Shown piece by piece: positions 3,820 to 64,000 of a stretch of DNA of 64,000 nucleotides. The position numbers and the translations under genes were made by a program. The notes under the pieces were generated by a model. The model had not been told where the DNA came from and made no database searches. It worked only from the letters and a program-made list of their open reading frames with translations. Numbering within the stretch: position 1 is the stretch's first letter; every line of letters begins with the position of its first letter. Origin of the DNA: Spirochaetia bacterium. Lineage in GTDB: Bacteria > Spirochaetota > Spirochaetia > CADAEX01. Where the stretch lies: the NCBI GenBank assembly GCA_963668545.1, contig OY764868.1, positions 3,234,015 to 3,298,014 on the forward strand, read 5' to 3'.

Positions 3820-3849
3820 GTAAATTCTTCTTCATATCTATTGAAAGCA

Positions 3850-6840: not shown

Positions 6841-7001
6841 TATAGCAAAACAATACGGATTTTACCTGATATTTTTAAAATAATTTAAATCTTGAACCTG
6901 CATGAATGACTGTCTTCAGCTGATTTTTTATTAAATAAGTGCAATAATGCTCACAATGTTTCCTGAAATTGAAATAAGAAACAGAATATGGAGCTTATTA
7001 T

Positions 7002-7511: not shown

Positions 7512-7560
7512 TCAGTATTTTGACTATACTGTGATATAATCGACACACTTAAAAACTGAT

Positions 7561-8896: not shown

Positions 8897-9076
8897 ATGC
8901 TTGGATTATCAGATTTTTCAGTATTTCTCTCATACAGTCTGGTTTTTCTGCTTGCCCTTACCTGTATCACTTACGGGCTCCTGAAATGGAACAGGGAAGG
9001 TGAAATAAGTGAAGAGGAAATTCAGGAAGAAAAAACATGGCTCAGGGAAGAGCTGGAAATTGAGGAAAAGGTTTAG
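8897..9076 (+). CDS. small membrane protein, putative symporter-associated subunit (YhdT/DUF4212-like)
   Basis: 59-aa ORF just under the 60-aa cutoff of the ORF track. It has one TM helix, then an acidic tail. It ends 12 nt before the symporter start (GGAG RBS between them). Confidence 0.4.
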   Translation: MLGLSDFSVFLSYSLVFLLALTCITYGLLKWNREGEISEEEIQEEKTWLREELEIEEKV

Positions 9077-9087
9077 GAGAAATAATT

Positions 9088-46477: not shown

Positions 46478-47278
46478 TTATAAAGGGCTCTTAATCCTTT
46501 TAGATATCGGATCTGCAAGATTAATATAGATCATTGTAGTTTTAACAGATTTATGTCCAAGCAGCTCTTTTACAGTCTTAATATCAATACCTGATTCAAC
46601 AAGATGAGTTGCAAAGCAGTGCCTCAGGGTATGACATGTGGGGCTTTTCTGTATTTGGCTTTTGTTAAGAGCATTTTCGAATATCTTCTGAACAGTCCTC
46701 ACAGAATATTTTTTTCCGCTGATTGTCCTGAACAGGAATTCAGCCGCACTTCGCCCGCTTATAAGATTCCGGAGGTCCTCTTTATATTTTTCGGACAGCA
46801 GAGAAAACCGGTCCTTATTACCCTTTGAATCTCTTATCTTTACTGAAAGATTATTTAAATTTACATCCCTTATCTTTATCCTGCAAACCTCGCTAACACG
46901 CAGGCCGCTGCCGTAAAGAAGGGAGATCATAAGCTGATGTTTTTTATTGCTTATATTTTTCAGAATTTCAAGGATCTCTTCCCTTGTCAGAATATCAGGA
47001 AGCCTTTTTCTTGACCTTACCCTGTCAAGTTTATAAGGGCACGGCTTATCAAGAACAACAGAATAAAACAGCTTTACGGCAGACCACGCAAGCCGTCTCT
47101 GTTCGGGAGATTTTTCTTCAGTTTCAAGAAAGACCGCAATTCTTTTTTCAGGCACAAAATCTGTCCGCCTAGAGAATTCAATAAAATGCTTTAAATGACC
47201 TGAATAAATCCGTATTGTATTTCGGGAATAATTACGGTTTTTCATCTCTCTGACAAAATCATCAAGATAATTTTTCAT
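46478..47278 (-). CDS. tyrosine site-specific recombinase, putative integron-associated integrase (compact, Xer-like; apparently lacks IntI-specific insertion)
   Basis: Catalytic R127 (GLRVSE), K152/155 (SKGNKDR), H216-x-x-R219 (HTLRHCFATHL), H242 and Y251 (LGHKSVKTTMIY). Divergent from the plus-strand cassette array. Confidence 0.8.
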   Translation of the reverse strand: MKNYLDDFVREMKNRNYSRNTIRIYSGHLKHFIEFSRRTDFVPEKRIAVFLETEEKSPEQRRLAWSAVKLFYSVVLDKPCPYKLDRVRSRKRLPDILTREEILEILKNISNKKHQLMISLLYGSGLRVSEVCRIKIRDVNLNNLSVKIRDSKGNKDRFSLLSEKYKEDLRNLISGRSAAEFLFRTISGKKYSVRTVQKIFENALNKSQIQKSPTCHTLRHCFATHLVESGIDIKTVKELLGHKSVKTTMIYINLADPISKRIKSPL

Positions 47279-47604
47279 AAATCACGTCCTCCTTTATGTA
47301 TTAACAGGAGAAATGCAATTCTGCTTGAATTATCAGCAAACAAACCGTAAAATTATCATGCAATACAGATAAATGTAGTTCATCTGAAATAACTCGGGGC
47401 TAAGAAAATTTAATATAACTGGCTCCAGCGGTAGATCAGCAAAGAAGCGGTGTAGCTTATGGGATATTGTCATGGCACATGATTAACGACAAGAACCGCC
47501 CCGAGTTACATCAGATAACAAGAAATATATGCGGCATTTCATTTGGGCTTCGCCACAATGGCTTCGTCCCTCAGCCATCGTCATATATTTCTAAAACGTT
47601 ATGT
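47279..47604 (+). other. attI-like region with degenerate attC-like structure ending in GTTAT core (47598-47602)
   Basis: 11-bp inverted repeat TAACTCGGGGC (47388-47398) / GCCCCGAGTTA (47497-47507), then cagATAAC-AAGAAATATATG...CATATATTTCT-aaaacGTTAT homologous to downstream attC sites. Confidence 0.5.
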
Positions 47605-47682
47605 TCAATGCCCATTTTTTTTACATTTTTTGAACTCGCCCGTCCATGGGCTCGTAAGAGGAAATAATTAAGGTAAATATAA

Positions 47683-49404
47683 GTGTCGAAGAAACTAACA
47701 ATTGAGGAAATGCAAAATATTGCTAAAAGTCGTGGTGGCAAATGCATCTCAAAGAAATATATAAATAAAAATAGTAAATTGGAATGGGAATGCTCTGAAG
47801 GCCATAGATGGTTAGCAACTCCAGATTCAATTAAAAATACTGGTCGATGGTGCCCTATATGCGGAGGTTCTGCACCATTAACGTTAAAAGAAATACAATT
47901 AATTGCTAAAGAAAGAGGTGGGAAATGTCTTTCCGAAGAGTATATCAATGTCAAAACAACAATGAGATGGGAATGTTCAGAAGGTCACCACTGGGAGAAC
48001 ACTGCCGGAAAAATTAGACAAGGTCAATGGTGCCCTTATTGTGCCGGAAAGGCAAAATTGGATATTCAGGACTTGAAAAGATTAGCAGAAGAAAAAGGCG
48101 GTAAATGTCTTTCTGAAAAATATAAGAACAATAGTTCAAAATTGTTATGGCAATGTTCAGAAGGGCATGAATGGAAATCCAGTGCAAATAATATTAAAAA
48201 TGGTGCGTGGTGTCCCTTTTGTGCTAATCGTGCAAGAATTACAATTGAGTCTCTATCAGATATTGCCAATAAAAGAGGTGGAGAACTTTTATCAACAGAT
48301 ATCGGAAATAACAAAACAAAATTGCAGTGGCGGTGCAAATACGGTCACACATGGAAAGCCACACCAAATGCCATTAGTAGAGGTACATGGTGCCCAAAGT
48401 GCTCAGAGGGTTTAGGAGAAAGAGTTTGTAGGTATTTCTTTGAAACACTTTTTGCAAAGAAGTTTAATAAAGCTCATCCTGATTGGTTGGTTTCAGAAAG
48501 AGGAGCGTTGCTTGAATTGGATGGATACAATGAAAGATTAAAAATTGCGTTTGAACACCAAGGCGTCCAGCATTACAAATTTTTAAAAGTTTTCCATTCA
48601 TCTAATGAGGACTTTATTGATCAGCAGAACAGGGATGAGCTTAAAAAAGAAGTTTGTAAAAAAAGAGGCATACACTTAATTGAGGTTCCAGAGATTCCAG
48701 CATTATTACCGTTGGATAAAGTCAAAGACTTTATTATTGAAAAATTGCAGGATTTACAGATTCCATTCAAATATGAAAAAGCAATATCAATTGATTTGAA
48801 TATAGCATATTCATCAAGTAAAACCGAAGAATTCTATATTCGTCTCCAGAAAGCTGTTGAAGAAAAAGGAGGAATATTAATTTCCAACCGATATCTCGGA
48901 ACTTCGACTAAACTTAAGTTCAAATGTAAAGAAGGGCATATCTGGAAGACATCTCCTAATATGATTTTTAATGGACAATGGTGTCCAGAATGTGCTGGAA
49001 ATATTAAATATACCTTAGAACAAGTTCAGGATTTTGCAAAAGAGCGAGGAGGGAAATGTCTATCGACAGAATACAATAGAGCAAATGAAAAGCTTAAATG
49101 GAAATGTAATTTTGGACATACTTGGGAAGCATCACTAAGTAATGTTATAACTGCAAATCATTGGTGTCCTGTATGTCGCAAGATTGAAGAAGAGACAAGA
49201 TTTTATAATGAAGCGGTTGATTTAGCAAAGAAAAATCAAGGAACTTGCATTTCAAGAAAATATATAAATGCAAAAACAAAGCTCAAGTGGCGTTGTTCCA
49301 GTGGACATGAATGGGAAGCGCTACTCGGTAATATTCGACAAGGAACATGGTGTCCTTATTGTGCCAAGAAGCGGAGAAATAGTAATACAGATAATTTATC
49401 GTAA
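47683..49404 (+). CDS. cassette 1: protein with seven ~45-aa treble-clef zinc-ribbon repeats (DUF4379-like, W-C-x-GH-W...W-CP-x-C) flanking a central DUF559/PD-(D/E)xK-like nuclease-fold domain
   Basis: Repeats KCxSxxY...KLxWxCxxGHxWxxxxxxIxxGxWCPxC occur 4 times N-terminally and 3 times C-terminally. The central LELDGYNERLKIAFEHQGVQHY resembles the restriction-endonuclease-like DUF559 core. Confidence 0.6.
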   Translation: MSKKLTIEEMQNIAKSRGGKCISKKYINKNSKLEWECSEGHRWLATPDSIKNTGRWCPICGGSAPLTLKEIQLIAKERGGKCLSEEYINVKTTMRWECSEGHHWENTAGKIRQGQWCPYCAGKAKLDIQDLKRLAEEKGGKCLSEKYKNNSSKLLWQCSEGHEWKSSANNIKNGAWCPFCANRARITIESLSDIANKRGGELLSTDIGNNKTKLQWRCKYGHTWKATPNAISRGTWCPKCSEGLGERVCRYFFETLFAKKFNKAHPDWLVSERGALLELDGYNERLKIAFEHQGVQHYKFLKVFHSSNEDFIDQQNRDELKKEVCKKRGIHLIEVPEIPALLPLDKVKDFIIEKLQDLQIPFKYEKAISIDLNIAYSSSKTEEFYIRLQKAVEEKGGILISNRYLGTSTKLKFKCKEGHIWKTSPNMIFNGQWCPECAGNIKYTLEQVQDFAKERGGKCLSTEYNRANEKLKWKCNFGHTWEASLSNVITANHWCPVCRKIEEETRFYNEAVDLAKKNQGTCISRKYINAKTKLKWRCSSGHEWEALLGNIRQGTWCPYCAKKRRNSNTDNLS

Positions 49405-49410
49405 TACTGT

Positions 49411-49438
49411 CCAAAAGTACCGTCCGTGGTACTTTTGG
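49411..49438 (+). terminator. hairpin immediately after cassette-1 ORF
   Basis: CCAAAAGTACCgtccgtGGTACTTTTGG; occupies the same position as the CCAGACC hairpins preceding other attC sites. Confidence 0.4.
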
Positions 49439-49471
49439 AATCTTTACTACACCAAAAAAAATGGGCACTAA

Positions 49472-49616
49472 ACATAACAGCGAATATGCGGTTACGCTTC
49501 GCTTCACCCAAATTGCTTCTTTGATAAAAGCTGAAAAAAGTATGTTATACTTTTCCCAGCTTTTATCAAGCCCACAAGGGGCCGAAGCAACTTCGCATAT
49601 TCGCGAGACGTTATCG
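49472..49616 (+). repeat. attC site of cassette 1
   Basis: ATAAC-agcgaatatgcg ... cgcatattcgcgag-acGTTATCG inverted arms; GTT at 49610-49612. Confidence 0.6.
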
Positions 49617-50044
49617 TAAATGGCTCTGACATACAACTTCATTCATTATTTACTAAAATCTGTCTCAGCCTTTTTTCAGGGTTTTATATCTCTTTCACAG
49701 GTTTCAACTGCACTGGTTCATTCTTGTTTTTAGAACTTCTTGCTTTGCTTTATCATGACTCTTATTGGTTTAAGTTTTTATATTTTTGCAGTTTCACTTT
49801 TCTTCAGTTCTGATATTGATAAGCACTAAGGGCTGAGTCAGATTTTGTCCTGACCTACACTCTTTCGTTTCCTTCACGCCACATCCGAAAACAGCGTATA
49901 TCCGGCTCCGGCTTGTGGGATGTATTTTCAGGGTAAAACGTCCTTCGCCAAAAATGCCAGGACTTTTTGTGTTGCAGAGTAAATGCAGCAGGTGTATCAT
50001 TAATCAAAATAAAGCGGCTGGCATCTTCGGATATACGCGTGCCG
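49611..50044 (+). repeat. ORF-less repeated cassette, copy a (434 nt, includes its own ~165-nt attC 49885-50050)
   Basis: Runs from the TT after the previous GTT core to its own GTT core. Divergent copy (about 90% identical to copies b-f). Confidence 0.6.
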
Positions 50045-50478
50045 TTTTCGGAAATGGCTCTGACATACAACTTCATTCATTATTCACGAAAATCTGTCTC
50101 AGCCTTTTTTCATGGTTTTGTGTCTCTTTCACAGGTTTCAACTGCATTTTTTCAGTTCTGCTTTTACAACTTCTTGCTTTGATTTTTCATGACTCTTATT
50201 GGTTTAAGTTTCTATATTTTGCAGTTTTCACACTTTTTAAGTTTTGTTATCTATAAGCACAAAGGGCTGAGTCAGATTTTGTCCTGACCTACACTCGTTC
50301 GTTTCCTTCACGCCACATCCGAAAACAGCGTATATCCGGCTCCGGCTTGCGGGGTGTATTTCCAGGGTAAAGCGTCCTTCGCCAAAAATGCCAGGACTTT
50401 TTGTGTTGCAGAGTAAATGCAGCAGGTGTATCATTATTCAAAATAGAGCGGCTGGCATCTTCGGATATACGCGTGCCG
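50045..50478 (+). repeat. ORF-less repeated cassette, copy b
   Basis: Same unit; attC arms gaAAAC-agcgtatatccg ... cggatatacgcgtgcc-GTTTTcg. Confidence 0.6.
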
Positions 50479-50913
50479 TTTTCGGAAATGGCGCTGACAT
50501 ACAACTTCATTCATTATTCACGAAAATCTGTCTCAGCCTTTTTTCCTTGGTTTTGTGTCTCTTTCATCGGTTTCAACTGCACTTTTTCAGTTCTGCTTTA
50601 AGAACTTAATTCTTTGATTTTTCATGACTCTTATTGGTATAAGTTTTTATATTTTTGCAGTTTCACTTCTCTTCAGTTCCGATATTGATAAGCACAAAGG
50701 GCTGAGTCAGATTTTGTCCTGACCTACTCTCTTTCGTTTTCTTCACGCCACTTCCGAAAACAGCGTATATCCGGCTCCGGCTTGCGGGGTGTATTTCCAA
50801 GGTAAAGCGTCCTTCGCCAAAAATGCCAGGACTTTTTGTGTTGCAGAGTAAATGCAGCAGGTGTATCATTAATCAAAATAAAGCGGCTGACATCTTCGGA
50901 TATACGCGTGCCG
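50479..50913 (+). repeat. ORF-less repeated cassette, copy c (identical to copy f)
   Basis: The 435-nt unit is identical base-for-base to 59612-60046. Identity starts and stops at the GTT cores. Confidence 0.65.
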
Positions 50914-50937
50914 TTATTCGTAATTTTCAGGCAAGAT

Positions 50938-50967
50938 ATTGCCCGGACCTCCCGGACGACACGGGCA
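50938..50967 (+). promoter_or_regulatory. conserved GC-rich hairpin module at 5' end of cassette (variant GCCCGGacctcccggacgacaCGGGC)
   Basis: About 25 nt downstream of the GTT core. Related modules at 53804, 56800, 58078, 60077 and 63524. Confidence 0.45.
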
Positions 50968-51004
50968 AAAGATTTAAAAAATATTTATTTTGCAGGAGAA
51001 AAAA

Positions 51005-51787
51005 ATGTTTTATGAGGAAATAAATAAAAGAACATGGAATGCAGCTAAACAATATTTAATAAATTTGTGTAAAGAAAGTTCGCATTGGATTTTTAGAGGT
51101 CAGTCAAATCCGGATTGGGAAGTAACTTCAACAATAGAAAGAGAATTAAGATATAGTGACCAAGAAAATTCTTCGATAGAAAATAAATTAATATCCGAAT
51201 TCAAAAGGGCTGCTCCCAATTATTTAAATCAAAACCAGATTCCTGCAAAACTGGTTGAATGGATGGCCTTAATGCAACATTACGGAGCTCCAACTCGTTT
51301 AGTTGATTTTACTAAATCTCCATATATTGCAACATTCTTTGCTTTTGAAAATATCTTTGAAAATTACAAATATGTTACAGTATGGGCAGTAGAAAGCTAC
51401 AAATTGAAGCAATTAGCTAATGAAGTGTATATAGATGATGATGTTCCCCAATTAATGAAAAATAATAAATATTTGGTATATCCTATTGAACCTTTTATAA
51501 TGAATGAAAGATTCGAAAAACAACAAGGGACATTTTTAATTACAGGAAACATTAATCAATCACTAGCTACAAATTTTATCGAAATGGGCTTATTAGAAGA
51601 TATGGGAATTATTAAAAAAATTAATATTCCAAAAATAGAAAAAAATAGTGTTATTCAAGACTTAAATTTAATGAATATCAATCCTGTAACTCTTTTTCCT
51701 GGTTTAGATGGATATTCGCGATACATAAAAAAAATGACAGATGCAATTTATAAAAAAGATTTTACTTATTTTAAAAGAGGAAATTAA
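51005..51787 (+). CDS. cassette: FRG-domain protein
   Basis: HWIFRGQSNPDWEV motif (FRG). ATG at 51005 with a GGAG RBS (the ORF track's TTG at 50990 is inside the conserved hairpin module). Confidence 0.65.
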   Translation: MFYEEINKRTWNAAKQYLINLCKESSHWIFRGQSNPDWEVTSTIERELRYSDQENSSIENKLISEFKRAAPNYLNQNQIPAKLVEWMALMQHYGAPTRLVDFTKSPYIATFFAFENIFENYKYVTVWAVESYKLKQLANEVYIDDDVPQLMKNNKYLVYPIEPFIMNERFEKQQGTFLITGNINQSLATNFIEMGLLEDMGIIKKINIPKIEKNSVIQDLNLMNINPVTLFPGLDGYSRYIKKMTDAIYKKDFTYFKRGN

Positions 51788-51859
51788 AATATTGCGACAA
51801 GTTATAAACAATTCAGAACTGGCTCCGCCGGACGGTCTGAAGAAGAGCCTGAAAACTAC

Positions 51860-52028
51860 GCATAACAGAGAATACCCGGTTCAGGCATAAGTAGTAAAAG
51901 TATGGGGCTTAACTGCCGTTCACCCAAAATGTCGGGACTTTTGTTGTTGCGTGTGAAATCTGGTGGGTATATGATTAATGAAATATCTGGAGCATCCGAC
52001 ATCTTCGGGTATTCTCAGAACGTTATAA
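51860..52028 (+). repeat. attC site (long family 1) of FRG cassette
   Basis: cATAAC-agagaatacccg ... cgggtattctcag-aacGTTATAAG. Preceded by an imperfect CAGAAC...GGTCTG hairpin at 51817-51839. Confidence 0.6.
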
Positions 52029-52125
52029 GAAATTGCGCTAATTAAATCTAATATAGATATTATATTTACAATAATTACATATAAATATATTTGATATATA
52101 ATGGTTTAATAATAAAGGATGATAT

Positions 52126-52680
52126 ATGAAAAAAATTATAATAAGTTTGATATTTATAACAGTAGCTTTTTGTGCTTTTCCTCAAGAAGCGAATATGAGA
52201 TTTCAATCTCAAATAGCTAGATTATTTGCACTCTATATTCCAAGTGCCGATTACAGTGTTGATTGGAACGCTAATAATACTGGAGAAGTTCTCAATATAA
52301 AATTTCCTGAAGTGAAATCATCAACTTATAATAGAAATATAATACCTAATTTAACAATTCAAATTGAAAAGAAATACAAATCCTTTGATACAAAGAGTGA
52401 ATTGATAAGTTTGTTGAATGACATGGAAAAAAGTCATTTCAAAGCAATATCAACAGGTCAAAAAGTCGATGGAGTCAATTTACAATACTCTATTGAAACT
52501 TTTGTAGCCTGTCAAAGCTATAAAGATCTTAAGATAAACAATATGAACCATACAATTCTTATCATGCTTGGACAATATGAAGACATGGCTGCCAGAGTAA
52601 TATTTGATGCTACTGATGATATATTTGAAAACACTCTTGAAACTGCAAAAACCATAATAAATAGTATTATTCTTGATTAA
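52126..52680 (+). CDS. cassette: secreted hypothetical protein (signal peptide)
   Basis: MKKIIISLIFITVAFCAF signal peptide. AT-rich cassette with its own AT-rich 5' region. Confidence 0.55.
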   Translation: MKKIIISLIFITVAFCAFPQEANMRFQSQIARLFALYIPSADYSVDWNANNTGEVLNIKFPEVKSSTYNRNIIPNLTIQIEKKYKSFDTKSELISLLNDMEKSHFKAISTGQKVDGVNLQYSIETFVACQSYKDLKINNMNHTILIMLGQYEDMAARVIFDATDDIFENTLETAKTIINSIILD

Positions 52681-52745
52681 AGAATATATCAAAGTAAAAC
52701 TATGAGAAGTTTAAATAATGTTGTTAGTGAAGGTAGGCGCAACTA

Positions 52746-52910
52746 CTTATAACAAGAAATATATGATAAAAACTGAATTAGAATAAATATAAGCAAACAG
52801 TTTTTATCAAAATTGCCAGAATATTTTCTGTTTCAGGATAATTTCAGAAGGTGTATGATTATTTCATATGAAGCACTCTGGCAACTTCATATATTTCTGA
52901 AACGTTTTCG
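52746..52910 (+). repeat. attC site (family 2)
   Basis: cTTATAAC-aagaaatatatg ... tgccag...ctggca ... catatatttct-gaaacGTTTTCG. Confidence 0.6.
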
Positions 52911-53339
52911 GAAATGGCTCTGACTCACAACTTCATTCATTATTCACAAAAATCTGTCTCAGCCTTTTTTCCATGGTTTTGTGTCTCATTTCTCGGTTTC
53001 AACTGCACTTTTTCAGTTCTGCTTTTACAACTTCTTGCTTAGATTTTTCATGACTCTTATTGGTATAAGTTTTTATATTTTTGCAGTTTCACTTCTCACC
53101 AGTTTTGATATTGATAAGCACTAAGGGCTGAGTCAGATTTTGTCCTGACTTACACTCTTTCGTTTTCTTCACGCCACATCCGAAAACAGCGTATATCCGG
53201 CTCCGGCTTGTGGGATGTATTTTCAGGGTAAAACGTCCTTCGCCAAAAATGCCAGGACTTTTTGTGTTGCAGAGTAAATGCAGCAGGTGTATCATTAATC
53301 AAAATAAAGCGGCTGGCATCTTCGGATATACGCGTGCCG
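52905..53339 (+). repeat. ORF-less repeated cassette, copy d
   Basis: Same 434/435-nt unit as copies a-c. Confidence 0.6.
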
Positions 53340-53773
53340 TTTTCGGAAATGGCTCTGACATACAACTTCATTCATTATTCACGAAAATCTGTCTCAGCCT
53401 TTTTTCAAGGTTTTGTGTCTAATCCTTGGGTTTCAACTGCACTGGTTCAGTTCTGCTCTTATAACATTTTGCTTTGATTTTTCATGACGCTTATGGATAT
53501 AAGTTTTTATATTTTTGCAGTTTCACTTTTCTTCAGTTCTGATATCGATAAGCACAAAGGGCTGAGTCAGATTTTGTCCTGACCTACACTCTTTCGTTTC
53601 CTTCACGCCACATCCGAAAACAGCGTATATCCGGCTCCGGCTTGTGGGATGTATTTTCAGGGTAAAACGTCCTTCGCCAAAAATGCCAGGACTTTTTGTG
53701 TTGCAGAGTAAATACAGCAGGTGTATCATTAATCAAAATAAAGCGGCTGGCATCTTCGGATATACGCGTGCCG
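53340..53773 (+). repeat. ORF-less repeated cassette, copy e
   Basis: Same unit. Confidence 0.6.
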
Positions 53774-54072
53774 TTATAAGCAATGTTTCCGCTAAGAGGA
53801 GAACGCCCATACCTCCGCCGACGGGCGAAGATTTAAAATTTATGATAAATTCAAAATAAAATGAAAGTATCTATGTATTGAATGATACGAAAGAATATGT
53901 TTATCAGAAAGAACTAAAATGAAATCATAGATGGTAAAACTTGACTTTTTCGTGATTAATAGTGATAGTTTTGTGATATTTCTGATTTTATAATATTAAT
54001 CTATTGAACCAATAATATTGAATATATTCCTTGACAGAGATTTTTACTGTATCTATCATTATCTTAACAACT

Positions 54073-55020
54073 ATGGAATATAGAGACTATTATAAAATCC
54101 TTGGCCTATCCAAGGATGCAACAAAAGATGATATAAAAAAGGCATACCGCAAACTTGCGCGTAAGTATCATCCAGATATAAACCTCCATGATAAAAAAGC
54201 TACTACTATGTTTGCAGATATCAATGAAGCAAACGAAGTGTTAAGCAGCGACGAAAAACGCAGGAAATATGATGCTCTGGGTTCAGACTGGCAGCAGTAT
54301 CAAAGTACCGGCTCCCAGAGGGCCTCACAACCACAGGGATTCGATTGGACACAATACGGTAAAGGAGCAGGCACTCAATCGTATACAGTTACAGAGGACG
54401 ACTTGAACAATATGTTTGGAGAAGGCGGTTTTTCGGATTTTTTCCAAAGCTTTTTTTCGTCCAGCCAGGAAAGACCGGGCAGTTCGGCTAAAAATTACGC
54501 AAGAAAAGGGCAGGATTATCAGGCTGAATTATATCTCGAAATTGAAGAAGCCTATAAAAAAACTGTTAAGACACTCTCTATAAACAGACAAAATATCAAG
54601 ATCACCCTTGAACCTGGCGTCAGGGATAGCCAGGTCATTAGACTGAAGGGTAAGGGCGGCCTAGGAATTAATGGCGGAGCTAATGGTGATTTATTTATTA
54701 CCCTGAAAATAAAACCCCATCCTATCTATAAAAGGGAGGGAGATGATCTGATTATGGAACTTGGTGTGAGTGTTTACAAAGCCATGCTTGGCGGCGAACA
54801 AATTATTAAATTATTATCAGATTCAATAAAAGTGAAAATAGCTCCCGAGACCCAAAGAGGGACAACACTACGCATCAAAGGAAAAGGATTTCCTTTGTAC
54901 AGGATAAAAGATGAATTTGGAGATTTATATATAAAGCTGGTTCTGGATGTACCCAAAAAGCTGACTGTAAAAGAGAAGGAATTAATAATGGAACTGGCCA
55001 AAATTAGGGGAGAAATATAA
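54073..55020 (+). CDS. cbpA: cassette: curved-DNA-binding DnaJ-like co-chaperone CbpA (J domain + DnaJ C-terminal domains, no Zn finger)
   Basis: MEYRDYYKILGL...HPD J-domain at the N-terminus, Gly/Phe-rich linker and two DnaJ_C beta domains. ATG at 54073 (the ORF track's TTG at 54031 would add 14 aa). Confidence 0.8.
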   Translation: MEYRDYYKILGLSKDATKDDIKKAYRKLARKYHPDINLHDKKATTMFADINEANEVLSSDEKRRKYDALGSDWQQYQSTGSQRASQPQGFDWTQYGKGAGTQSYTVTEDDLNNMFGEGGFSDFFQSFFSSSQERPGSSAKNYARKGQDYQAELYLEIEEAYKKTVKTLSINRQNIKITLEPGVRDSQVIRLKGKGGLGINGGANGDLFITLKIKPHPIYKREGDDLIMELGVSVYKAMLGGEQIIKLLSDSIKVKIAPETQRGTTLRIKGKGFPLYRIKDEFGDLYIKLVLDVPKKLTVKEKELIMELAKIRGEI

Positions 55021-55022
55021 AC

Positions 55023-55379
55023 ATGACAAGTCAAATATATATCCCTATCCAGGACGTTTCCGATTTTTGTCACATTAATATTACTATACTAAGAGATTTT
55101 GCCGAATACGAACTCATCAATATTCAAGAGTATAAAAATACCGAATGTGTGAAGGCTGATGATCTTGAACATATCAAGCGGATTATAGATTTATACAAGA
55201 GTCTTGGAGTGAATAAGGAAGGCATAGAGGTAATCCTGAAAATGCGCGACCAAATCCTGGAATTACAGGACGAAATTACTATACTTAAACATAAACTCGA
55301 GCACCGTAGAAACGACGTCAAATTTCGCTTTATAGAATTACCCAAGCAAAAGGGTTTATTGATTGATTATGATGAATAA
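55023..55379 (+). CDS. cbpM: cassette: chaperone modulatory protein CbpM (MerR-like)
   Basis: 118 aa, begins 3 nt after the cbpA stop. MerR-like fold; this is the canonical cbpA-cbpM pairing. Confidence 0.65.
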   Translation: MTSQIYIPIQDVSDFCHINITILRDFAEYELINIQEYKNTECVKADDLEHIKRIIDLYKSLGVNKEGIEVILKMRDQILELQDEITILKHKLEHRRNDVKFRFIELPKQKGLLIDYDE

Positions 55380-55692
55380 TCATTTTCAATAAGGATTATA
55401 AATTTATCACAACAATAACTGCCTTATTTAAAAACTAAGTGATATTGGAGTTTGTCAAAGAATTAATGTTTCTTAGGGAACAAATTGGTATTTAAAGTTT
55501 CAGATTTTTAGATTACAACCATTGCTCAAACCACAACTATGCTTTCCTGTTTTTAGTTTTCTCAGAAGCTCCAGATTAATCGTGGTATAGATCGAGGTAT
55601 AGTCAAAAACATCATAAGAAATAATCAAGTCTGATGATGTAATATAAAACAATGAGCAAATTTGTATAACATACAGTATGGAAGAGAAGGGA

Positions 55693-55833
55693 CCAGACCT
55701 TGACTCCTCCGAGCGGTCTGGTCGAAGAGGCGGAAACACTGCTTATAACAGCGGCTATATGCTTCGCCCTTTCGGGCTCGGCCTACGGCACATTTGGCTG
55801 CGCCAAACGTCATATAACCGCAAAACGTTAGCC
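55693..55833 (+). repeat. CCAGACC hairpin + short attC (family 3) ending GTTAGCC
   Basis: CCAGACCttgactcctccgagcGGTCTGG, then cTTATAAC-agcggctatatg ... catataaccgc-aaaacGTTAGCC (canonical GTTRRRY). Confidence 0.6.
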
Positions 55834-55913
55834 ATAATGCTCGGCTTGCCTTTTTGACTCGCCATCCATAGCTCGATTTGTAAGTAATATTAAAAGTAGG
55901 GAGATATAGTTCA

Positions 55914-56558
55914 ATGAACCTTTATAAGCACAAAAAAATCTTTTTATCAATTTTTCTATCTGCAATATTTTGTTTTAATTCATTATCGTTAGTAGCTGAT
56001 GATTATTCACCTGAAATCCAAAAATATATGGATGATTTGTTAAAGTGGAGAAAGGAGGTTGCATTACCACCACTACCGAAATTAATAACTTTACCATCAG
56101 GAATTACTATTCCAGAATTCACATTGAAGACAGAGAAATACCCTGAAGTTTTTTGGGATGGAAATATGATGATTGGCGCAACTCCTTTTATTGTGCGAGT
56201 TTTAACTGAAAATGAGACAGAAATACTCATAAAAATTGCTTCAGATGCACTTACACAACACTATAACTCAAGATCAAAGAAATCCGATATGGGTTTTGAA
56301 AAAGCACATATAAATGATTTCTATGCTTTATCAATAGCTGAAGTATATAGACATTCTGGGTTATTCGGACCAACCATTGATGGAAGCACAACATTTGTAT
56401 TAATTATGAAAAAAGATGTAAATCCATCAAACCTTTTTCCAAATGAAAAGCTATATAAAAACTACATACCTTGGGCGCCTAGCGGCATACATTTCTTAGT
56501 AATTGAGCGATTTTCTGATGGTTCTTTTAAAGTCAATAACGAAGGAGCCGCCGGATAA
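55914..56558 (+). CDS. cassette: secreted hypothetical protein
   Basis: Signal peptide MNLYKHKKIFLSIFLSAIFCFNSLSLVA. Confidence 0.55.
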   Translation: MNLYKHKKIFLSIFLSAIFCFNSLSLVADDYSPEIQKYMDDLLKWRKEVALPPLPKLITLPSGITIPEFTLKTEKYPEVFWDGNMMIGATPFIVRVLTENETEILIKIASDALTQHYNSRSKKSDMGFEKAHINDFYALSIAEVYRHSGLFGPTIDGSTTFVLIMKKDVNPSNLFPNEKLYKNYIPWAPSGIHFLVIERFSDGSFKVNNEGAAG

Positions 56559-56611
56559 AAAAGTACATCCATATACTTTGTATATTTAGATAGAGGATAG
56601 CCGAGCACAAC

Positions 56612-56775
56612 GGCTAACAAGAAATATATTATTCAGGCTGGAGAAGTAAAAAAGAAAGTATACAGCCTTCATCCAAATTGCCAGAATGTTTTCTGTTGCA
56701 GAGTAATTTCAGCAGGTGTATGATTATTTCATATGAAGAAGTCTGGCAACTTCATATATTTCTGAAACGTTATCA
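56612..56775 (+). repeat. attC site (family 2)
   Basis: gCTAAC-aagaaatatatt ... catatatttct-gaaacGTTATCAG. Confidence 0.6.
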
Positions 56776-56799
56776 GAAATGTTCCCGCAAGAGGAAGAT

Positions 56800-56824
56800 C
56801 GCCCGGACCTCCGGCCGACGGGCG
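56800..56824 (+). promoter_or_regulatory. conserved GC hairpin module CGCCCGGacctccggccgaCGGGCG at cassette 5' end
   Basis: Identical or near-identical copies at 58078, 60077 and 63524; variants at 50938 and 53804. Confidence 0.45.
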
Positions 56825-56861
56825 AAGATAATTCAACAATAATGAAAAAGGAGATAATAAT

Positions 56862-57821
56862 TTGAAAAATGTATATTTAATAATACTATTATTGACAGTT
56901 AATACATTAGTTTCAGCAAATGACACATGGATTTATAACGCATATAGTGGTTCCCCAATAAAAATTAATGAGGATCATAATAAAATTGAATTAATCAATG
57001 AAACAATCACAGTTAAATTAGAAAAAGACTACTACTATATTGATGTTTTATTCAACTTTTACAATCATGGAAATGATGTAAATACAGTTATAGGTTTTCC
57101 TAAATTTTATTGGACCGGATTTCCATATGAAAAAGCAGATACTGAATTTATAGATTTTGAAACATTTGTTAATGGTAAAAAAGTTGATTCTAAAATTCAA
57201 AAAATACTAAAATATGATAAACTATCTGAATTTTTAACAAAAGAGGTATACATTCCTTCTAAGTCAAAAACAACAACTGAAATAAGATATAAGAGTAAAT
57301 ATGCAACCTATGGAGGAATGGGTCATAAATCTGTACCATATTTATATGGTACAGGTAAAACTTGGGCGAAAGAATCTTGGGATATAGATGTAAAAATAAT
57401 AAATAATAGCAACAAATGGATTAAGCGATTCCAATGTGATCAAAAAATCTATAAATTTTCAAATAAAAACAATGTTATTGATTTAATCTTTAAAGATGTG
57501 AATCCAAACGAATTTACAGAGTATTTTGAAATTGTATTAAAGAATAATTTTGATGAAATGTTTGATTTTTACTGGGATATTTATGGGGAAAAAAATATTA
57601 AACAAGATGAACTAACTTATTTAAATGATAATCAATTAAGACTTTATAGAAATGCATTCTTTGCAAAAGATGGTTATATTTTCAAATCAAAAGATTTGCA
57701 AAATTATTTTAAAAAATTTGATTGGTATAAAGAAAACAATGACTTTAATCCAGATGTTTTTTCAAATATAGAAAAAAATAATATTAAATTAATTTCAATA
57801 GAAGAAAAAAAACGTAAATAG
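56862..57821 (+). CDS. cassette: secreted YARHG-domain protein
   Basis: Signal peptide; C-terminal LRLYRNAFFAKDGYIFKSKDLQNYFKKFDWY matches the YARHG-domain pattern. Confidence 0.6.
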   Translation: MKNVYLIILLLTVNTLVSANDTWIYNAYSGSPIKINEDHNKIELINETITVKLEKDYYYIDVLFNFYNHGNDVNTVIGFPKFYWTGFPYEKADTEFIDFETFVNGKKVDSKIQKILKYDKLSEFLTKEVYIPSKSKTTTEIRYKSKYATYGGMGHKSVPYLYGTGKTWAKESWDIDVKIINNSNKWIKRFQCDQKIYKFSNKNNVIDLIFKDVNPNEFTEYFEIVLKNNFDEMFDFYWDIYGEKNIKQDELTYLNDNQLRLYRNAFFAKDGYIFKSKDLQNYFKKFDWYKENNDFNPDVFSNIEKNNIKLISIEEKKRK

Positions 57822-57837
57822 AATCTTTAAAAGAAAT

Positions 57838-58054
57838 CCAGACCTGGCTCCGCCGTACGGTCTGGAGAAGAGCGGGAACACATCTGATAACAGAGAATAC
57901 CACGGTTCAGGCATAAGTTGTAGAAGCTTTGGAATAAATGCCTTTCACCCAAAATGTCGGGTCTTTTTATTGTTGCGTGTGAAATCGGCCAGATATATGA
58001 TTTATTAAATATCTGGAGTACCCGACATCTTCGGGTATTCTCAGAACGTTATCG
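57838..58054 (+). repeat. CCAGACC hairpin + long attC (family 1)
   Basis: CCAGACCtggctccgccgtacGGTCTGG ... tGATAAC-agagaatacc ... cgggtattctcag-aacGTTATCG. Confidence 0.6.
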
Positions 58055-58165
58055 TAAATGCCCCCCAAGAGAAGATCGCCCGGACCTCCGGCCGACGGGC
58101 GATAAGATTATAATGATTATGAATTGAATTAGACTACAAAAAAGTAAAGAGGAGGATCTACAGAT

Positions 58166-59341
58166 ATGTCAGAGCAGTTCTCAAGAAGAAAAAAGGAAGA
58201 AAACCCCGTTATAGCGATTTGCTATGATTTTGATAAAACCCTTTCTCCTGACGATATGCAAGCTCAAGGATTTATACAGTCAGTTGGATATGATATAAAA
58301 ACTTTTTGGGAGAGATCAAATAAGCTTGCTACTGATAATGAAATGGATCAAAATCTAGCATATATGTATACAATGCTTCAAACATCAGTAGGGATGCAGT
58401 TAGTAACAAAAAAAGTGTTAAGGGAATATGGTGAAAAAGTTACTCTTTTCCCTGGAGTAGAAGATTGGTTCTCAAGAATAAGAGATTATGGCATTAAACG
58501 CGATGTTATAATTGAACATTATATAATTTCATCTGGTTTAAAAGAAATGATTGAAGGAACATCAGTTGCAAAAGAATTTGAAAAAATATATGCAAGTTCT
58601 TTTTATTTTGATGAATATGATATTGCAAAGTGGCCAGCTCAAGCAATAAATTATACAAATAAGACTCAGTTTTTATTCAGAATAGAAAAAGGTGTTTTGG
58701 ATATTAATGACCAAAGTGTAAATGATAGCTTTTCATCAGATAAAATTAGAGTGCCATTCAGAAATATAATTTATATTGGTGATAGTGACACTGATATCCC
58801 GTGTATGAAATTAGTTAATTCTTATGGGGGGCATTCAATAGGCGTATATAATGTTGAAACAAAGGATAAAACTAAAGTTTATAAAATGATGAGGGAAAAT
58901 AGAATTAAATATTTCTCTCCAGCTGATTATTCTGAAGATTCAGAATTGGACAAATTAATAAAAGCAATAATTGTAAGAACTGTTTCCAATGAGCAACTTG
59001 AAGTTTTTCATTCAAAAAATATTTTAGAACAAATTGATAATGACAAATCATATGATAAAAAGACTCAAGAACAAAATAAAGAAAGATTGAATGGTATTTT
59101 AGCACTTGAAAGCAGTCTTAGTTTTACGAATACTCATACCGTTATTGATAAGATTAAACATATTCAAGATTGGACAGATAAAGAAATAGAAATGTTATTA
59201 GAAATAGGAAATAAAAATAGTCAAGTATGGTATATATTAGGTGATTTAGACGTAAAGAATTTTTATAAAAGACTTATAGAATCACCAAATTGTAATAAAG
59301 AGACGGATAATGCAAAAGAAATTATAGAACAGATAGATTAA
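58166..59341 (+). CDS. cassette: HAD-like hydrolase with C-terminal extension
   Basis: CYDFDKTLSP (DxDxT motif I) and IYIGDSDTD (motif IV); 391 aa. Confidence 0.55.
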   Translation: MSEQFSRRKKEENPVIAICYDFDKTLSPDDMQAQGFIQSVGYDIKTFWERSNKLATDNEMDQNLAYMYTMLQTSVGMQLVTKKVLREYGEKVTLFPGVEDWFSRIRDYGIKRDVIIEHYIISSGLKEMIEGTSVAKEFEKIYASSFYFDEYDIAKWPAQAINYTNKTQFLFRIEKGVLDINDQSVNDSFSSDKIRVPFRNIIYIGDSDTDIPCMKLVNSYGGHSIGVYNVETKDKTKVYKMMRENRIKYFSPADYSEDSELDKLIKAIIVRTVSNEQLEVFHSKNILEQIDNDKSYDKKTQEQNKERLNGILALESSLSFTNTHTVIDKIKHIQDWTDKEIEMLLEIGNKNSQVWYILGDLDVKNFYKRLIESPNCNKETDNAKEIIEQID

Positions 59342-59399
59342 ACTAAGATTATCTAAAAATAATGTTATCTTGAAATATAATCGAGAGATAGATAAAAAG

Positions 59400-59617
59400 C
59401 CAGACCTTGACTCCGTCGTACGGCTTGGACAAGAGAGGGGGGCACATCCGATAACAGAGAATACCCGGTTCAGGCATAAGCAGTAAAAGTTTGGGGCTTA
59501 ACTGCCTTTCACCCAAAATGTCGGGCCTTTTTATGTTACAGGTGGAAACTGGTGGTTGTATGATTATTTTAATACGTGGAAGATCCGACATCTTCGGGTA
59601 TTCTCAGAACGTTTTCG
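59400..59617 (+). repeat. hairpin + long attC (family 1) ending GTTTTCG
   Basis: CCAGACCttgactccgtcgtacGGCTTGG ... cGATAAC-agagaatacccg ... cgggtattctcag-aacGTTTTCGG. Confidence 0.6.
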
Positions 59618-60046
59618 GAAATGGCGCTGACATACAACTTCATTCATTATTCACGAAAATCTGTCTCAGCCTTTTTTCCTTGGTTTTGTGTCTCTTTCAT
59701 CGGTTTCAACTGCACTTTTTCAGTTCTGCTTTAAGAACTTAATTCTTTGATTTTTCATGACTCTTATTGGTATAAGTTTTTATATTTTTGCAGTTTCACT
59801 TCTCTTCAGTTCCGATATTGATAAGCACAAAGGGCTGAGTCAGATTTTGTCCTGACCTACTCTCTTTCGTTTTCTTCACGCCACTTCCGAAAACAGCGTA
59901 TATCCGGCTCCGGCTTGCGGGGTGTATTTCCAAGGTAAAGCGTCCTTCGCCAAAAATGCCAGGACTTTTTGTGTTGCAGAGTAAATGCAGCAGGTGTATC
60001 ATTAATCAAAATAAAGCGGCTGACATCTTCGGATATACGCGTGCCG
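59612..60046 (+). repeat. ORF-less repeated cassette, copy f (identical to copy c)
   Basis: 435/435 identity to 50479-50913; the flanks differ on both sides. Confidence 0.65.
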
Positions 60047-60143
60047 TTATCAGCAATGTTCCCGCAAGAGAAAGATCGCCCGGACCTCCGGCCGACGGGC
60101 GAGGATTGTGAAAATAATTAGTTAAATTTCAAGGAAATTATTT

Positions 60144-60917
60144 ATGCGAGAAAATATAGAATATTGGATAGATCTTTTAGAAAGTGCCTATATTTTAACT
60201 CATGATATTGACAAAATAATACGGCCTATAAGAAATAACGATATAATAAAAAAAGTTTTGAATGCATATCTTTTTAAAGTGAATAGGACACTTGCAGGGA
60301 TCATTTTATTATATAAAAATAACTTTAATGAAGAAGGCCAAATATTAGTACGTACAATGTTTGAGCTACTATTGGATTTTAGTTTTTTTACAAATATTTT
60401 AAAAACAGAACCTGAAATAGCTGGTCGTCGTATTATAGATAGTCTCATAATTGAAAAAGCAAAGCAACTAAGGGCTTCTAATTATGACGGCGTCCCAGAA
60501 AACATAAAATTAGATATTGAAAAATGGGAGTCTGAAGTCAAGTCAAGATATTCAATTGATGATATCCGGAAATTACGTAGATATGGATTTTCAATGGTAT
60601 CAGTAGAAGAAAAAGCAAAATTAACTGGTCATGAAAGCATATATAATATTATGTATAGAAACTTTTCTCGTAATTCACATAACACTGATTTTATGGAAAG
60701 TTTTCTTCAAATACAAGCATATGAGGCAGATGGCTATGAAGAGCTTCAAGTTTCAAGAGATTCTATTGCGATGGAAACTACATTTATAACAATATACAAT
60801 ACCATTCAATCTTTAAATACGGTTTTTAAACTTTCTTTCAATGATCGAATCGAACAACTTAAAAGAAAGTTTGATATGCTAAAAAAGAATAATGATGAAA
60901 CAATTTCAGGAAATTAG
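60144..60917 (+). CDS. cassette gene 1 of 2: hypothetical protein (257 aa, no recognisable domain)
   Basis: Long ORF with a GGAA RBS region; first gene of the only long two-gene cassette. Confidence 0.5.
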   Translation: MRENIEYWIDLLESAYILTHDIDKIIRPIRNNDIIKKVLNAYLFKVNRTLAGIILLYKNNFNEEGQILVRTMFELLLDFSFFTNILKTEPEIAGRRIIDSLIIEKAKQLRASNYDGVPENIKLDIEKWESEVKSRYSIDDIRKLRRYGFSMVSVEEKAKLTGHESIYNIMYRNFSRNSHNTDFMESFLQIQAYEADGYEELQVSRDSIAMETTFITIYNTIQSLNTVFKLSFNDRIEQLKRKFDMLKKNNDETISGN

Positions 60918-60958
60918 ATCATTCAATATTTTAGGAATTATCAAGGAGTATATAACTC

Positions 60959-61819
60959 ATGCTTGTAATTAAAAATTATATTTTTTCCTATTTTAATAGT
61001 ATTTCATATGAAATATGGATTGGAGCTATAATTGGAGCAATTATTTCTGCTTTGTTTATGTTATTTTTTTCATTTTTAAAAGGAATAATATTTAAAATTA
61101 AAGAACAACTACCAGTTCGAAAAGTTGTTGGTGATTTTGCAAATGACGAACAAATATGTAGTATCTTTTTAAAAAACCTTTACTCACATAATTATGAATA
61201 TCTATCAAATGAACCCAATTTTTTCCCACCTTATACGAAAAATACTCAAAGAGAATGGCAGAATATTCCATTTGTAATTGCTAATTCAGATTTCCAAGCT
61301 GCTACGGATTTTACAAACATCCTTGGACAAATAGGAAAAAGAAAAAATATTATTTTTCGATCAATTGAAAATGAGTGGGATTTGTGGTCAGAAAACATAT
61401 TATCTATTGGAGGCAATTATAAAACTGAAAAAATATTTGAATTGTCAAATAATAAATACGTGGAAATCACAGAAAATAATTCTTTTAAATTTAATGACCA
61501 CAGTGAATTATTTTTTTCTAAAGATAATAATGATTTCGGACTGATATATAAAGCTACAAATCCAGCAACACAGAAAAAATGTTTTGTTATAATGGGTATT
61601 GGTGTAGAAGGAACAAAAGCTGCAAGCTATTATTTTAGAACAAACTTATCTCAAATTGGTAAAATGTTTGGTAAAAATGACTTTGCATTGTTAGTTAAGA
61701 TAAAAATTGGACAAGGTAGAGAAAATTCTAAATTAGCCTGGTATCTTCCCAATATTTCTTTAAGTTCAAAACTATGTCATCCATTGATTTGGAAAAGAAT
61801 ATTTTCAATAATTAAATAA
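60959..61819 (+). CDS. cassette gene 2 of 2: membrane-anchored hypothetical protein (N-terminal TM helix + ~240-aa cytoplasmic domain)
   Basis: IWIGAIIGAIISALFMLFFSFL TM. GGAG RBS 8 nt upstream. No attC between it and gene 1. Confidence 0.5.
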   Translation: MLVIKNYIFSYFNSISYEIWIGAIIGAIISALFMLFFSFLKGIIFKIKEQLPVRKVVGDFANDEQICSIFLKNLYSHNYEYLSNEPNFFPPYTKNTQREWQNIPFVIANSDFQAATDFTNILGQIGKRKNIIFRSIENEWDLWSENILSIGGNYKTEKIFELSNNKYVEITENNSFKFNDHSELFFSKDNNDFGLIYKATNPATQKKCFVIMGIGVEGTKAASYYFRTNLSQIGKMFGKNDFALLVKIKIGQGRENSKLAWYLPNISLSSKLCHPLIWKRIFSIIK

Positions 61820-61943
61820 GCAATTTAATCAATCACGGGATAGACAGTATAAAATTATTATTAAAAATAAAAAATTAAGTAGCTTTCAAAAAAATATTAT
61901 TAACATATTTTCCGTACAATTTTTTTATGTAGACAGAAAAGAT

Positions 61944-62155
61944 CCAGACCTTGACTCCGCCGTGCGGTCTGGTCGAAGAGTGGGAACACTTCAGATAACA
62001 AGAAATATATGATTCAAGCTGGAAAAGAGTAAATGACAGAAAACAGCTTTCATCCAAATTGCCAGAACGTTTTCTATTTCTGTATAGTTGCAGCAGGTGT
62101 AAGATTATTTCATATAGAGCGGTCTGGCAACTACATATATTTCTGAAACGTTATT
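61944..62155 (+). repeat. CCAGACC hairpin + attC (family 2)
   Basis: CCAGACCttgactccgccgtgcGGTCTGG ... caGATAAC-aagaaatatatg ... ttgccag/ctggcaa ... catatatttct-gaaacGTTATTTG. Confidence 0.6.
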
Positions 62156-62171
62156 TGCAAGGCTAAAATTG

Positions 62172-63508: not shown

Positions 63509-63523
63509 CCCGCCAAGAGGAAG

Positions 63524-63548
63524 ACGCCCGGACCTCCGGCCTACGGGC
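63524..63548 (+). promoter_or_regulatory. conserved GC hairpin module (CGCCCGGacctccggcctaCGGGCG)
   Basis: Same module as at 56800, 58078 and 60077, here immediately after the IS right end. Confidence 0.45.
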
Positions 63549-63609
63549 GAAGAAAAAATGTAATTTAAAACAGAATTCGCTTTTTAGAGATGAATAATAA
63601 GGAAGATAA

Positions 63610-64000
63610 ATGATAATAAAAATAGCTTATTTCTCCGGAACTGGATGTACACAATTTGTCGCTGAATCATTCAAGAATGAAATTGAAGCTAGAAATCACT
63701 CTGCTCAAATGATTAGAATTGGTAAGGACATTTCAAATAGTAAGAAGGATTACGATTTACTAATTATATGTTATGCAGTCCATGCATGTAATGCGCCAAA
63801 GCCAGTTCTTGATTGGGTTAATAATAACGAAGAATCAGATAATGTTCCAACAGCCATTATTTCTGTTTCGGGAGGAGGAGAAGTAACCCCAAATTTAGCA
63901 TGTCGTTTATTATTGAAGAAGAAATTAACTAAGAAGAATTATTCAGTATTTTATGAAAAGATGATAGTAATGCCGTCAAATTGGATAGTTCCAACAAAAC
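63610..64000 (+). CDS. cassette: flavodoxin-like protein (3'-partial, runs off window)
   Basis: MIIKIAYFSGTGCTQ flavodoxin signature (S/T-x-T-G-x-T) at the N-terminus. Confidence 0.6.
   Translation, partial: MIIKIAYFSGTGCTQFVAESFKNEIEARNHSAQMIRIGKDISNSKKDYDLLIICYAVHACNAPKPVLDWVNNNEESDNVPTAIISVSGGGEVTPNLACRLLLKKKLTKKNYSVFYEKMIVMPSNWIVPTK

Follow-up and report, generated by a model that had tools for sequence, protein, structure and literature searches.

A cassette array in a spirochaete genome, probably a chromosomal integron whose cognate integrase belongs to an IntI-related lineage without the I2 domain

Can gene cassettes be collected by an integrase that lacks the domain by which integron integrases are recognized? 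The question is raised by a 64-kb stretch of the genome of a Spirochaetia bacterium (64,000 nucleotides of contig OY764868.1, hereafter the window), in which a minus-strand open reading frame (ORF) at positions 46478-47278 borders an array of co-oriented cassettes. The ORF is real and encodes a tyrosine recombinase of 266 amino acids (aa). Integron integrases (IntI) are defined in IntegronFinder by the combination of PF00589 and intI_Cterm (Cury et al. 2016, PMC4889954), and their additional domain, I2, has been described as necessary for cassette capture, as conferring single-strand recombination and as present in no other protein (Escudero et al. 2020, PMC7790495). The latter authors also stated that neither an ancestor-like sequence nor direct proof of causality is available. 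The compact recombinase bears both on the use of I2 as the defining criterion and on the notion that I2 was the innovation opening single-strand recombination. A conserved natural lineage without I2 at the active end of arrays lets the requirement for this domain be tested directly. The comparative sequence data presented here suggest that the locus is probably a sedentary chromosomal integron, with a cognate integrase from a conserved IntI-related lineage devoid of I2.

Pfam recognizes two parts in the 266-aa protein, a SAM-like core-binding domain at the N terminus and a full catalytic domain (PF00589, E = 4e-40). Its catalytic set is intact: R127, K152, H216, R219, H242 and Y251 correspond to R135, K160, H267, R270, H293 and Y302, respectively, of the VchIntIA integrase (PDB 2a3v). 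A phmmer comparison with PDB sequences returned VchIntIA as the top match, in two blocks that pair residues 9-173 with 9-181 and residues 195-266 with 246-317 of the VchIntIA chain. The VchIntIA segment between the blocks (182-245), which contains the I2 helix, faces only 21 residues of the compact protein; about 43 aa are thus missing. The W157 equivalent is absent as well. In the AlphaFold2 model (predicted local distance difference test score, 87.8), residues 174-192 form just a short loop/strand segment. The archaeal XerA structures (4a8e, 5hxy) align with the protein collinearly, in a single stretch with no insertion.

These results bear out the original prediction, made from the letters of the sequence, that the recombinase is compact and lacks the IntI additional domain. 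Alignment with IntI1, VchIntIA and XerC/XerD also upheld the catalytic residues that had been proposed, save that the lysine, placed at either K152 or K155, is K152 by its alignment with VchIntIA. The distance between this lysine and the first histidine, estimated at about 61-64 aa, measures 64 aa, and the values given for IntI1 (106 aa) and XerD (72 aa) proved correct. The spacing is bimodal in a MAFFT alignment of 89 relatives that included IntI1 from a class 1 integron (L064; related loci are designated by L and a number) and Escherichia coli XerC and XerD. Compact proteins have 64-72 aa (68 aa in XerC), as against 106-112 aa in the 23 canonical IntI (107 aa in VchIntIA), with a single intermediate sequence at 78 aa.

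Among NCBIfam families, the best match is TIGR02249 (integron integrase), which aligns in two stretches with a score of 205 bits, below its cutoff of 265. The second-best, NF040815 (XerA_Arch), aligns in one collinear stretch with 200 bits against a cutoff of 220. The protein is far below the cutoffs for XerC and XerD (TIGR02224/TIGR02225; 157/151 bits versus 335/330) and below that of NF011946 (130 bits versus 435). VchIntIA is also the best PDB fold match of the AlphaFold2 model, with a template modelling (TM) score of 0.82 by query length and 0.70 by target length in an alignment of 319 columns that includes gaps of about 50 columns; XerA comes next, with a TM score of 0.55. The C-terminal SPL motif is common to the compact protein and canonical IntI and is not found in XerC/XerD. 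The initial description of the recombinase as "Xer-like" therefore holds for its length and collinearity, but by sequence, fold and C-terminal tail the protein is closest to IntI. Devoid of the additional domain, below the profile cutoff and outside the IntI clade (see below), it fails three strict tests for IntI and is not filed as one.

Comparison of related loci revealed the point where cassettes enter the array. The integrases of the window and of L082 are 82% identical and share the same cupin/phosphoribosyltransferase/radical-SAM/Lnt synteny. The two loci can be aligned from the integrase gene through the first attC-like site and diverge directly after ...AAAACG|TTA. Locus L081, whose integrase is identical in protein sequence to that of L082, departs from both at window position 47378|47379, where the window reads ...ATGTAG|TTCATCTG and L081 reads ...TATAG|TTATCGTAAATG. 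The start of the first L081 cassette, TTATCGTAAATG, is also found inside the window's array. In L085 (76% integrase identity), the corresponding G is precisely where a 447-bp unit begins that matches a 434-bp cassette of the window with 90-96% identity. Hence, across four genomes, three different first cassettes (that of the window and L082, that of L081 and that of L085) adjoin one G|TT point. A fixed point that receives at least three different cassettes is an attI, and the presence of different first cassettes in genomes encoding an identical integrase indicates recent activity. The crossover lies about 100 bp upstream of the integrase start codon, with the integrase gene divergent from attI and the array. 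A scan of the intI-attI region for promoters and terminators yielded no excess of matches over shuffled sequence (a candidate outward cassette promoter, Pc, is listed in Table 1).

Two further observations concern this end of the array. Cassette 1, which has no ORF, holds a 125-nt nested palindrome (47386-47510; AAATAAC-TCGGGGC...GCCCCGA-GTTACAT) with no spacer asymmetry; it directly precedes the 92-nt attC-like site, is kept in L082 and could either belong to the attI region or represent a degenerate attC. Beside their identical integrases, L081 and L082 carry different defence cargo (locus positions 1-9500): an OLD-family nuclease, a BsuBI/PstI restriction-modification system and IS21 in the former, a type I restriction-modification system with an AAA/S8-peptidase pair in the latter, spanning about 8.8 kb between two attC sites.

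Beyond attI, the window contains at least 15 cassettes. Pattern search followed by constrained folding identified 15 attC-like sites within 16.7 kb, all on the plus strand. All sizeable ORFs between 47.6 and 63.3 kb lie on this strand, and G+C content drops from about 42% to 30-37%. The sites are palindromes of 91-170 nt with a G|TT crossover; sites of this geometry are absent from the other 47 kb of the window and from six 10-kb stretches taken as controls on the downstream side of related integrase genes. One cassette type, the 434-bp unit mentioned above, occurs in six copies at internal positions of the array, three of them in tandem, with 89-100% identity. In another species (L085 9456-9901) it is the attI-proximal cassette; in both species, the boundaries of this 434-447-bp unit lie at G|TT. 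Taken over all sites, R'' boxes complement the first bases of their own cassettes at 82 of 105 variable positions, compared to a background of 51%. In non-tandem cassettes, the match is 6-7 out of 7 to the cassette's own start and 2-4 out of 7 to the neighbour's start. Such pairing within one cassette, between R'' and the 5' end, would follow from the excision of cassettes as circles, with the crossover at G|TT. The locus shows every testable feature of an integron platform: an attI site by the integrase, co-oriented cassettes, and AAC/GTT ends with a G|TT crossover.

The 15 sites follow a common plan, xxTAAC - A - L'' (11 nt) ... L' (11 nt) - NNNNC - GTTAxxx. When 30 distinct sites from seven loci were aligned by their joined ends, AAC and GTT were found to be invariant, and the 11-bp L stem was paired at 96.7%, a percentage that is partly built in because the pattern used to collect the sites required complementary arms. 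The diversity of compensatory pair types in a fixed geometry is not built in by this step: 9 of the 11 pairs show double compensatory changes, none of 500 shuffles reached the observed score, and the pairing is lost once the partners are slid against each other. When folded, the bottom strand forms an R stem of 5 bp and, without interruption, an L stem of 11 bp; between the two stems, on the 5' arm, a bulge of 4 nt directly follows the cleaved AA|C. The bulge is part of a 1x5 internal loop, and the spacing of 1 versus 5 nt is fixed across sites. The last R-stem pair is a G.T on the bottom strand and would be an A/C mismatch on the top strand; the bottom strand is usually the more stably folded of the two. 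Constrained folds of the window sites contained no extrahelical bases in the L stem, whereas the same script, applied to control arrays associated with canonical IntI (L040, L054, L055, L074), returned a small internal loop and, at a distance of 5-6 bp from each other, two 1-nt bulges, which correspond to the classical extrahelical bases. Canonical attC, whose arms are broken by such bulges, tend to escape an exact-arm pattern search, and its negatives do not argue against arrays at other compact-family loci; the constrained folding that took over from it is based on minimum free energy and is noisy.

In IntI, as exemplified by VchIntIA, the I2 helix clamps two extrahelical bases. With this helix absent, polarity may be marked by the bulge, an idea that is weakened by the mixed arrays described below. 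Like IntI, the compact enzyme would recombine attI with the bottom strand of attC in its folded state; it would read strand polarity from an unpaired feature other than extrahelical bases. In bulge-type attC the 4-nt bulge would replace these bases, providing both the asymmetry and a bend between the R-bound and L-bound monomers. We infer that the window recombinase itself would catalyse attI x attC and attC x attC events, footprints of which are seen in the comparisons of loci and of R'' boxes.

The compact enzyme could instead move cassettes by double-stranded, two-strand exchange at short G|TT cores, in the style of Xer, Cre or the Brujita integrase, with the long palindromes serving elsewhere, for example in transcription termination or cruciform formation. 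In favour of this, archaeal XerA, whose substrate is double-stranded dif, aligns collinearly with the recombinase, the attI core resembles an ordinary site with inverted arms, and I2 is regarded in the field as the domain conferring single-strand recombination (PMC7790495). The alternative is nonetheless unlikely. What the attC-like sites conserve is pairing rather than sequence, as seen in the covariation of the L stem and in its fixed 1-versus-5-nt spacing, and the attI and attC families share no double-stranded core past AAC/GTT. The R'' match to the cassette's own start is as in hairpin-based integron cassettes. Both the strand-specific G.T pair and the greater stability of the bottom strand point to a folded single strand.

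Association of the compact integrase with arrays was assessed in other genomes. A contig scan with two very general motifs gave, among the matches listed, only distant relatives (at most 42% identity), and loci of close relatives were then gathered singly. Eleven loci of clade members include the DNA upstream from the integrase gene (the window, L081, L082, L084, L085, L086, L087, L088, L091, L092 and L093), while L083 stops at a contig edge. In ten of them, the attI side carries two to eight sites of the same type with the same relative orientation. The integrases beside arrays are 48-92% identical and all 265-269 aa long. The genes on the other side vary between at least five contexts (cupin/Lnt, opp ABC transporter, ammonium transporter/P-II, sigma-54 regulators, MarC/RecQ). 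Integrase gene and array thus move as a unit across contexts, which is hard to reconcile with chance adjacency.

Several points weigh against assigning these arrays to the compact enzyme. The eleventh locus, L086, has no detectable array beside its clade-member integrase. The arrays of L092 and L084 are mixed, with canonical-looking attC carrying two extrahelical bases beside the bulge-type sites. L092 has four such sites (9294-9385, 5223-5313, 6787-6879 and 85-178), with the extrahelical bases on the expected arm, and L084 has one (7662-7774). They combine a 2x2 spacer with two single bases, 5-6 bp apart, on the 3' arm of the bottom strand; one of those in L092 belongs to the attI cassette (a DUF3788 gene, duplicated in the array). 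Either the compact enzyme tolerates both types of site or another integrase contributes. Deletion of the additional domain is cited in PMC7790495 as abolishing the activity of IntI1 (Messier & Roy 2001). Finally, the pairing percentage is, as noted, partly a product of how the sites were collected. Separately, an exclusive link between compact enzyme and bulge-type sites was considered and is ruled out by the mixed arrays of L092 and L084.

The mixed arrays, with canonical sites suited to a classical IntI, also lend some weight to the possibility that an I2-bearing IntI encoded elsewhere in the genome serves the array, which would then be a cluster of attC sites lacking an integron integrase (CALIN) with a Xer-type or mobile-element recombinase as a bystander at its edge. 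Cury et al. (PMC4889954) found that, for 29 of 50 PF00589-only recombinases near attC sites, the genome had an IntI elsewhere. No other tyrosine recombinase was detectable by tblastn within the 64-kb window of this 3.8-Mb genome. We consider such a bystander very unlikely. The cases of Cury et al. are scattered and have fewer than three attC each, compared to 15 in the window (PMC4889954). The gene sits next to an attI that has been used, in the classical divergent orientation; across the ten array-bearing loci it is always found at the attI end; and its XerC/XerD scores are less than half the cutoffs of about 330. Of the two options that the original prediction had left open, a non-canonical integrase lineage serving the array gains support from attI proximity and co-occurrence, while a Xer/phage recombinase adjacent by chance is disfavoured by the demonstrated insertion point and the shared travel of gene and array.

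Over 100 relatives with lengths of 265-282 aa came up in a protein search, those named being spirochaete "tyrosine-type recombinase/integrase" entries. Compact length (265-270 aa) and catalytic residues are kept in more than 100 homologues down to 41% identity, and across 70 homologues the catalytic residues and the SPL tail are invariant or nearly so. A short length produced by secondary deletion or assembly artefact, also considered, is ruled out by this family-wide conservation. The phylogeny, which is by neighbour-joining only (100 bootstraps), has a monophyletic canonical IntI clade (97) that excludes the window recombinase, and a monophyletic clade of compact spirochaete proteins (100) outside it. 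This topology argues against a recent deletion of I2, whose absence is an old, stable property of the compact lineage. The sister relation of the two clades has 14% support, and the tree gives no supported order among the compact spirochaete clade, canonical IntI and a large compact group from the candidate phyla radiation (CPR), Bacteroidota, Firmicutes and Ignavibacteriota. Absence of I2 in the compact lineage would most simply be primitive, loss on the stem being the alternative under neighbour-joining. A fossil array, built by an integrase since lost or by an intI that decayed into the compact gene by losing I2, would agree with the cited inactivation of IntI1 by domain deletion, but is hardly credible given the conservation of the compact family, its place in the tree and the first cassettes that differ between genomes encoding an identical integrase.

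The interpretation as an integron with a compact cognate integrase can be set against known systems. As in IntI-encoding sedentary chromosomal integrons, the recombinase has the catalytic set RKHRHY and an SPL end, finds there its best sequence and fold match, and is divergent beside attI; cassettes are promoterless, co-oriented and strain-variable, with genes mostly of unknown or accessory function, AAC...GTT palindromes, a G|TT crossover and R'' complementary to the cassette start. Unlike IntI, the protein is without the roughly 43 aa that hold I2 and without the W157 equivalent, scores below the TIGR02249 cutoff and lies outside the IntI clade; unlike canonical attC, the sites are long, have no extrahelical bases and present a 1x5 loop where canonical sites have an unpaired spacer of roughly symmetric form at the centre. 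Archaeal XerA and bacterial "XerA-like" proteins (NF040815) have the same length, are collinear and score near the cutoff. XerA, however, resolves dimers at dif, whereas the window protein ends a cassette array, is found in variable contexts and has a much lower TM score to XerA than to VchIntIA (0.55 versus 0.82). A precedent for a recombinase without I2 acting on a folded hairpin is provided by XerC, which integrates single-stranded CTX phage DNA. XerC/XerD and the integrative mobile elements exploiting Xer (IMEX) such as this phage likewise combine a recombinase without I2 with a hairpin-folded site; the window protein differs from XerC/XerD by its scores, its SPL tail and the lack of a dif or housekeeping context, and the many-cassette array differs from the single integrated element of CTX-type IMEX. 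The "reverse" integrons of Treponema (T. denticola and relatives), from the same phylum, share with the window chromosomal arrays of strain-specific cassettes. They encode a long IntI (1197 bp for T. brennaborense intI) co-oriented with the cassettes, and from the L box of their short attC (63-132 bp) a G protrudes (Wu et al. 2013, PMC3607928), whereas the window has a short, divergent integrase and attC with no extrahelical bases. We found no description of an I2-less integrase lineage tied to arrays in the literature searched, most subscription journals being outside its scope, and an earlier description is possible.

Arrays also accompany compact relatives outside the spirochaetes. In Ignavibacteriota (L030, at least nine sites) and Flavobacterium (L014), they have a 3-4-nt bulge and no single-base bulges; the integrase gene is co-oriented with the array, still at its upstream end. 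A more general proposal, which we advance tentatively and lean slightly against, is that hairpin-site cassette capture without I2 may be widespread, in so far unrecognised integrons run by IntI relatives that never acquired I2 and act on bulge-type attC, with the class seen in Spirochaetota and look-alike arrays by compact relatives in Ignavibacteriota, Bacteroidota and Firmicutes. If true, the pre-I2 ancestor said to be lacking would have a natural substitute in the compact lineage, and the 4-nt bulge would be a second, simpler way of marking the recombinogenic strand. Surveys keyed on intI_Cterm would undercount integrons outside Proteobacteria, and current tools would score such integrons as CALIN or miss them.

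As a separate observation, I2-less relatives with 34-40% identity flank repeat arrays at L030 11110-20172, L014 11391-15026, L008 212-4733 (a Firmicutes metagenome-assembled genome) and L019 2504-8894 (Oceanirhabdus). The repeats of L030 and L014 are AAC...GTT palindromes; those of L008 have a 7x4 spacer. Two IS91-family transposase genes (Zn_Tnp_IS91 + Y2_Tnp) lie inside the array of L084 (1-984 and 8613-9803), one of them followed directly by an attC-like palindrome, as if itself a cassette. An IS91-linked role, considered on account of the Y2-transposase genes nearby in the P0054 locus (L084), was rejected: the genes are cassette-like units inside the array, and none is found in the window.

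Table 1. Integrase gene, attI-like site and cassettes of the window (positions in the 64-kb stretch).
Feature	Position	Strand	attC-like site	Basis
Compact IntI-like tyrosine recombinase, 266 aa, RKHRHY, no I2 additional domain, SPL end	46478..47278	-		Profile, alignment, AlphaFold2
Candidate outward cassette promoter (Pc), TTGAAT-17-TAAAAT	47325..47353	+		Consensus match only
attI-like core, CAGATAAATGTAG|TTCATCTG, imperfect inverted arms, crossover G|TT at 47378|47379	47366..47386	+		Homology break between loci
Cassette 1, 220 bp, no ORF, common to L082	47379..47598	+	47513-47604	
Cassette 2, 573-aa CapR/DUF4379 zinc-finger-repeat protein	47599..49610	+	49472-49616	
Cassettes 3-5, three tandem 434-bp copies	49611..50913	+	49886-50050, 50320-50484, 50755-50919	
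Cassette 6, FRG-domain protein	50914..52022	+	51860-52028	
Cassette 7, 184-aa protein of unknown function	52023..52904	+	52747-52910	
Cassettes 8-9, two 434-bp copies	52905..53773	+	53181-53345, 53615-53779	
Cassette 10, two genes: DnaJ-like and MerR_2	53774..55827	+	55743-55833	
Cassette 11, 214-aa protein of unknown function	55828..56769	+	56612-56775	
Cassette 12, YARHG-domain protein	56770..58048	+	57885-58054	
Cassette 13, HAD-like protein	58049..59611	+	59449-59617	
Cassette 14, sixth 434-bp copy	59612..60046	+	59888-60052	
Cassette 15, DUF5677 protein and 286-aa ORF	60047..62150	+	61993-62156	
Array continuation: IS481-family transposase (62268-63350) inserted; further cassette past window end	62151..64000	+		

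The content of the cassettes (Table 1) gave rise to some additional observations. The 573-aa protein of cassette 2 (47683-49404) is made of about nine CapR/DUF4379 treble-clef modules (WxCxxGHxW...WCPxC), which show in the DNA as a 180-nt periodicity. The 434-bp cassette has only one plausible product, a hydrophobic peptide of 42 aa, MALTYNFIHYSRKSVSAFFHGFVSLSQVSTAFFQFCFYNFLL, whose start lies 10 nt past the boundary; the cassette could encode a small toxin or membrane peptide, or be a selfish cassette.

Two hairpins recur in unrelated cassettes. The first, G+C-rich (GATCGCCCGGACCTCCGGCCGACGGGCGA), is located 20-40 nt past G|TT, at the 5' end of cassettes and upstream of start codons (56794-56846, 58071-58123, 60071-60123 and 63519-63571, with variants near 50925-50975 and 53795-53833), and may be a shared leader or regulatory element. 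The second (CCAGACC...GGTCTGG followed by GAAGAG) lies just upstream of R'' (55693-55735, 59400-59442, 61944-61986, 51802-51876 and 57827-57901) and could either extend attC or be a terminator-like element. Rfam at gathering threshold gave no match in the window, the conserved cassette hairpins included, and ARAGORN found no tRNA genes there, which leaves the window without a tRNA-linked island and the hairpins without a known RNA motif. The IS481-family element (62151-63520) follows directly the fifteenth attC-like site and has terminal inverted repeats that contain GGACATGGGTAAC / GTTACCCATGTCC; beyond it, the cassette leader hairpin resumes at 63519.

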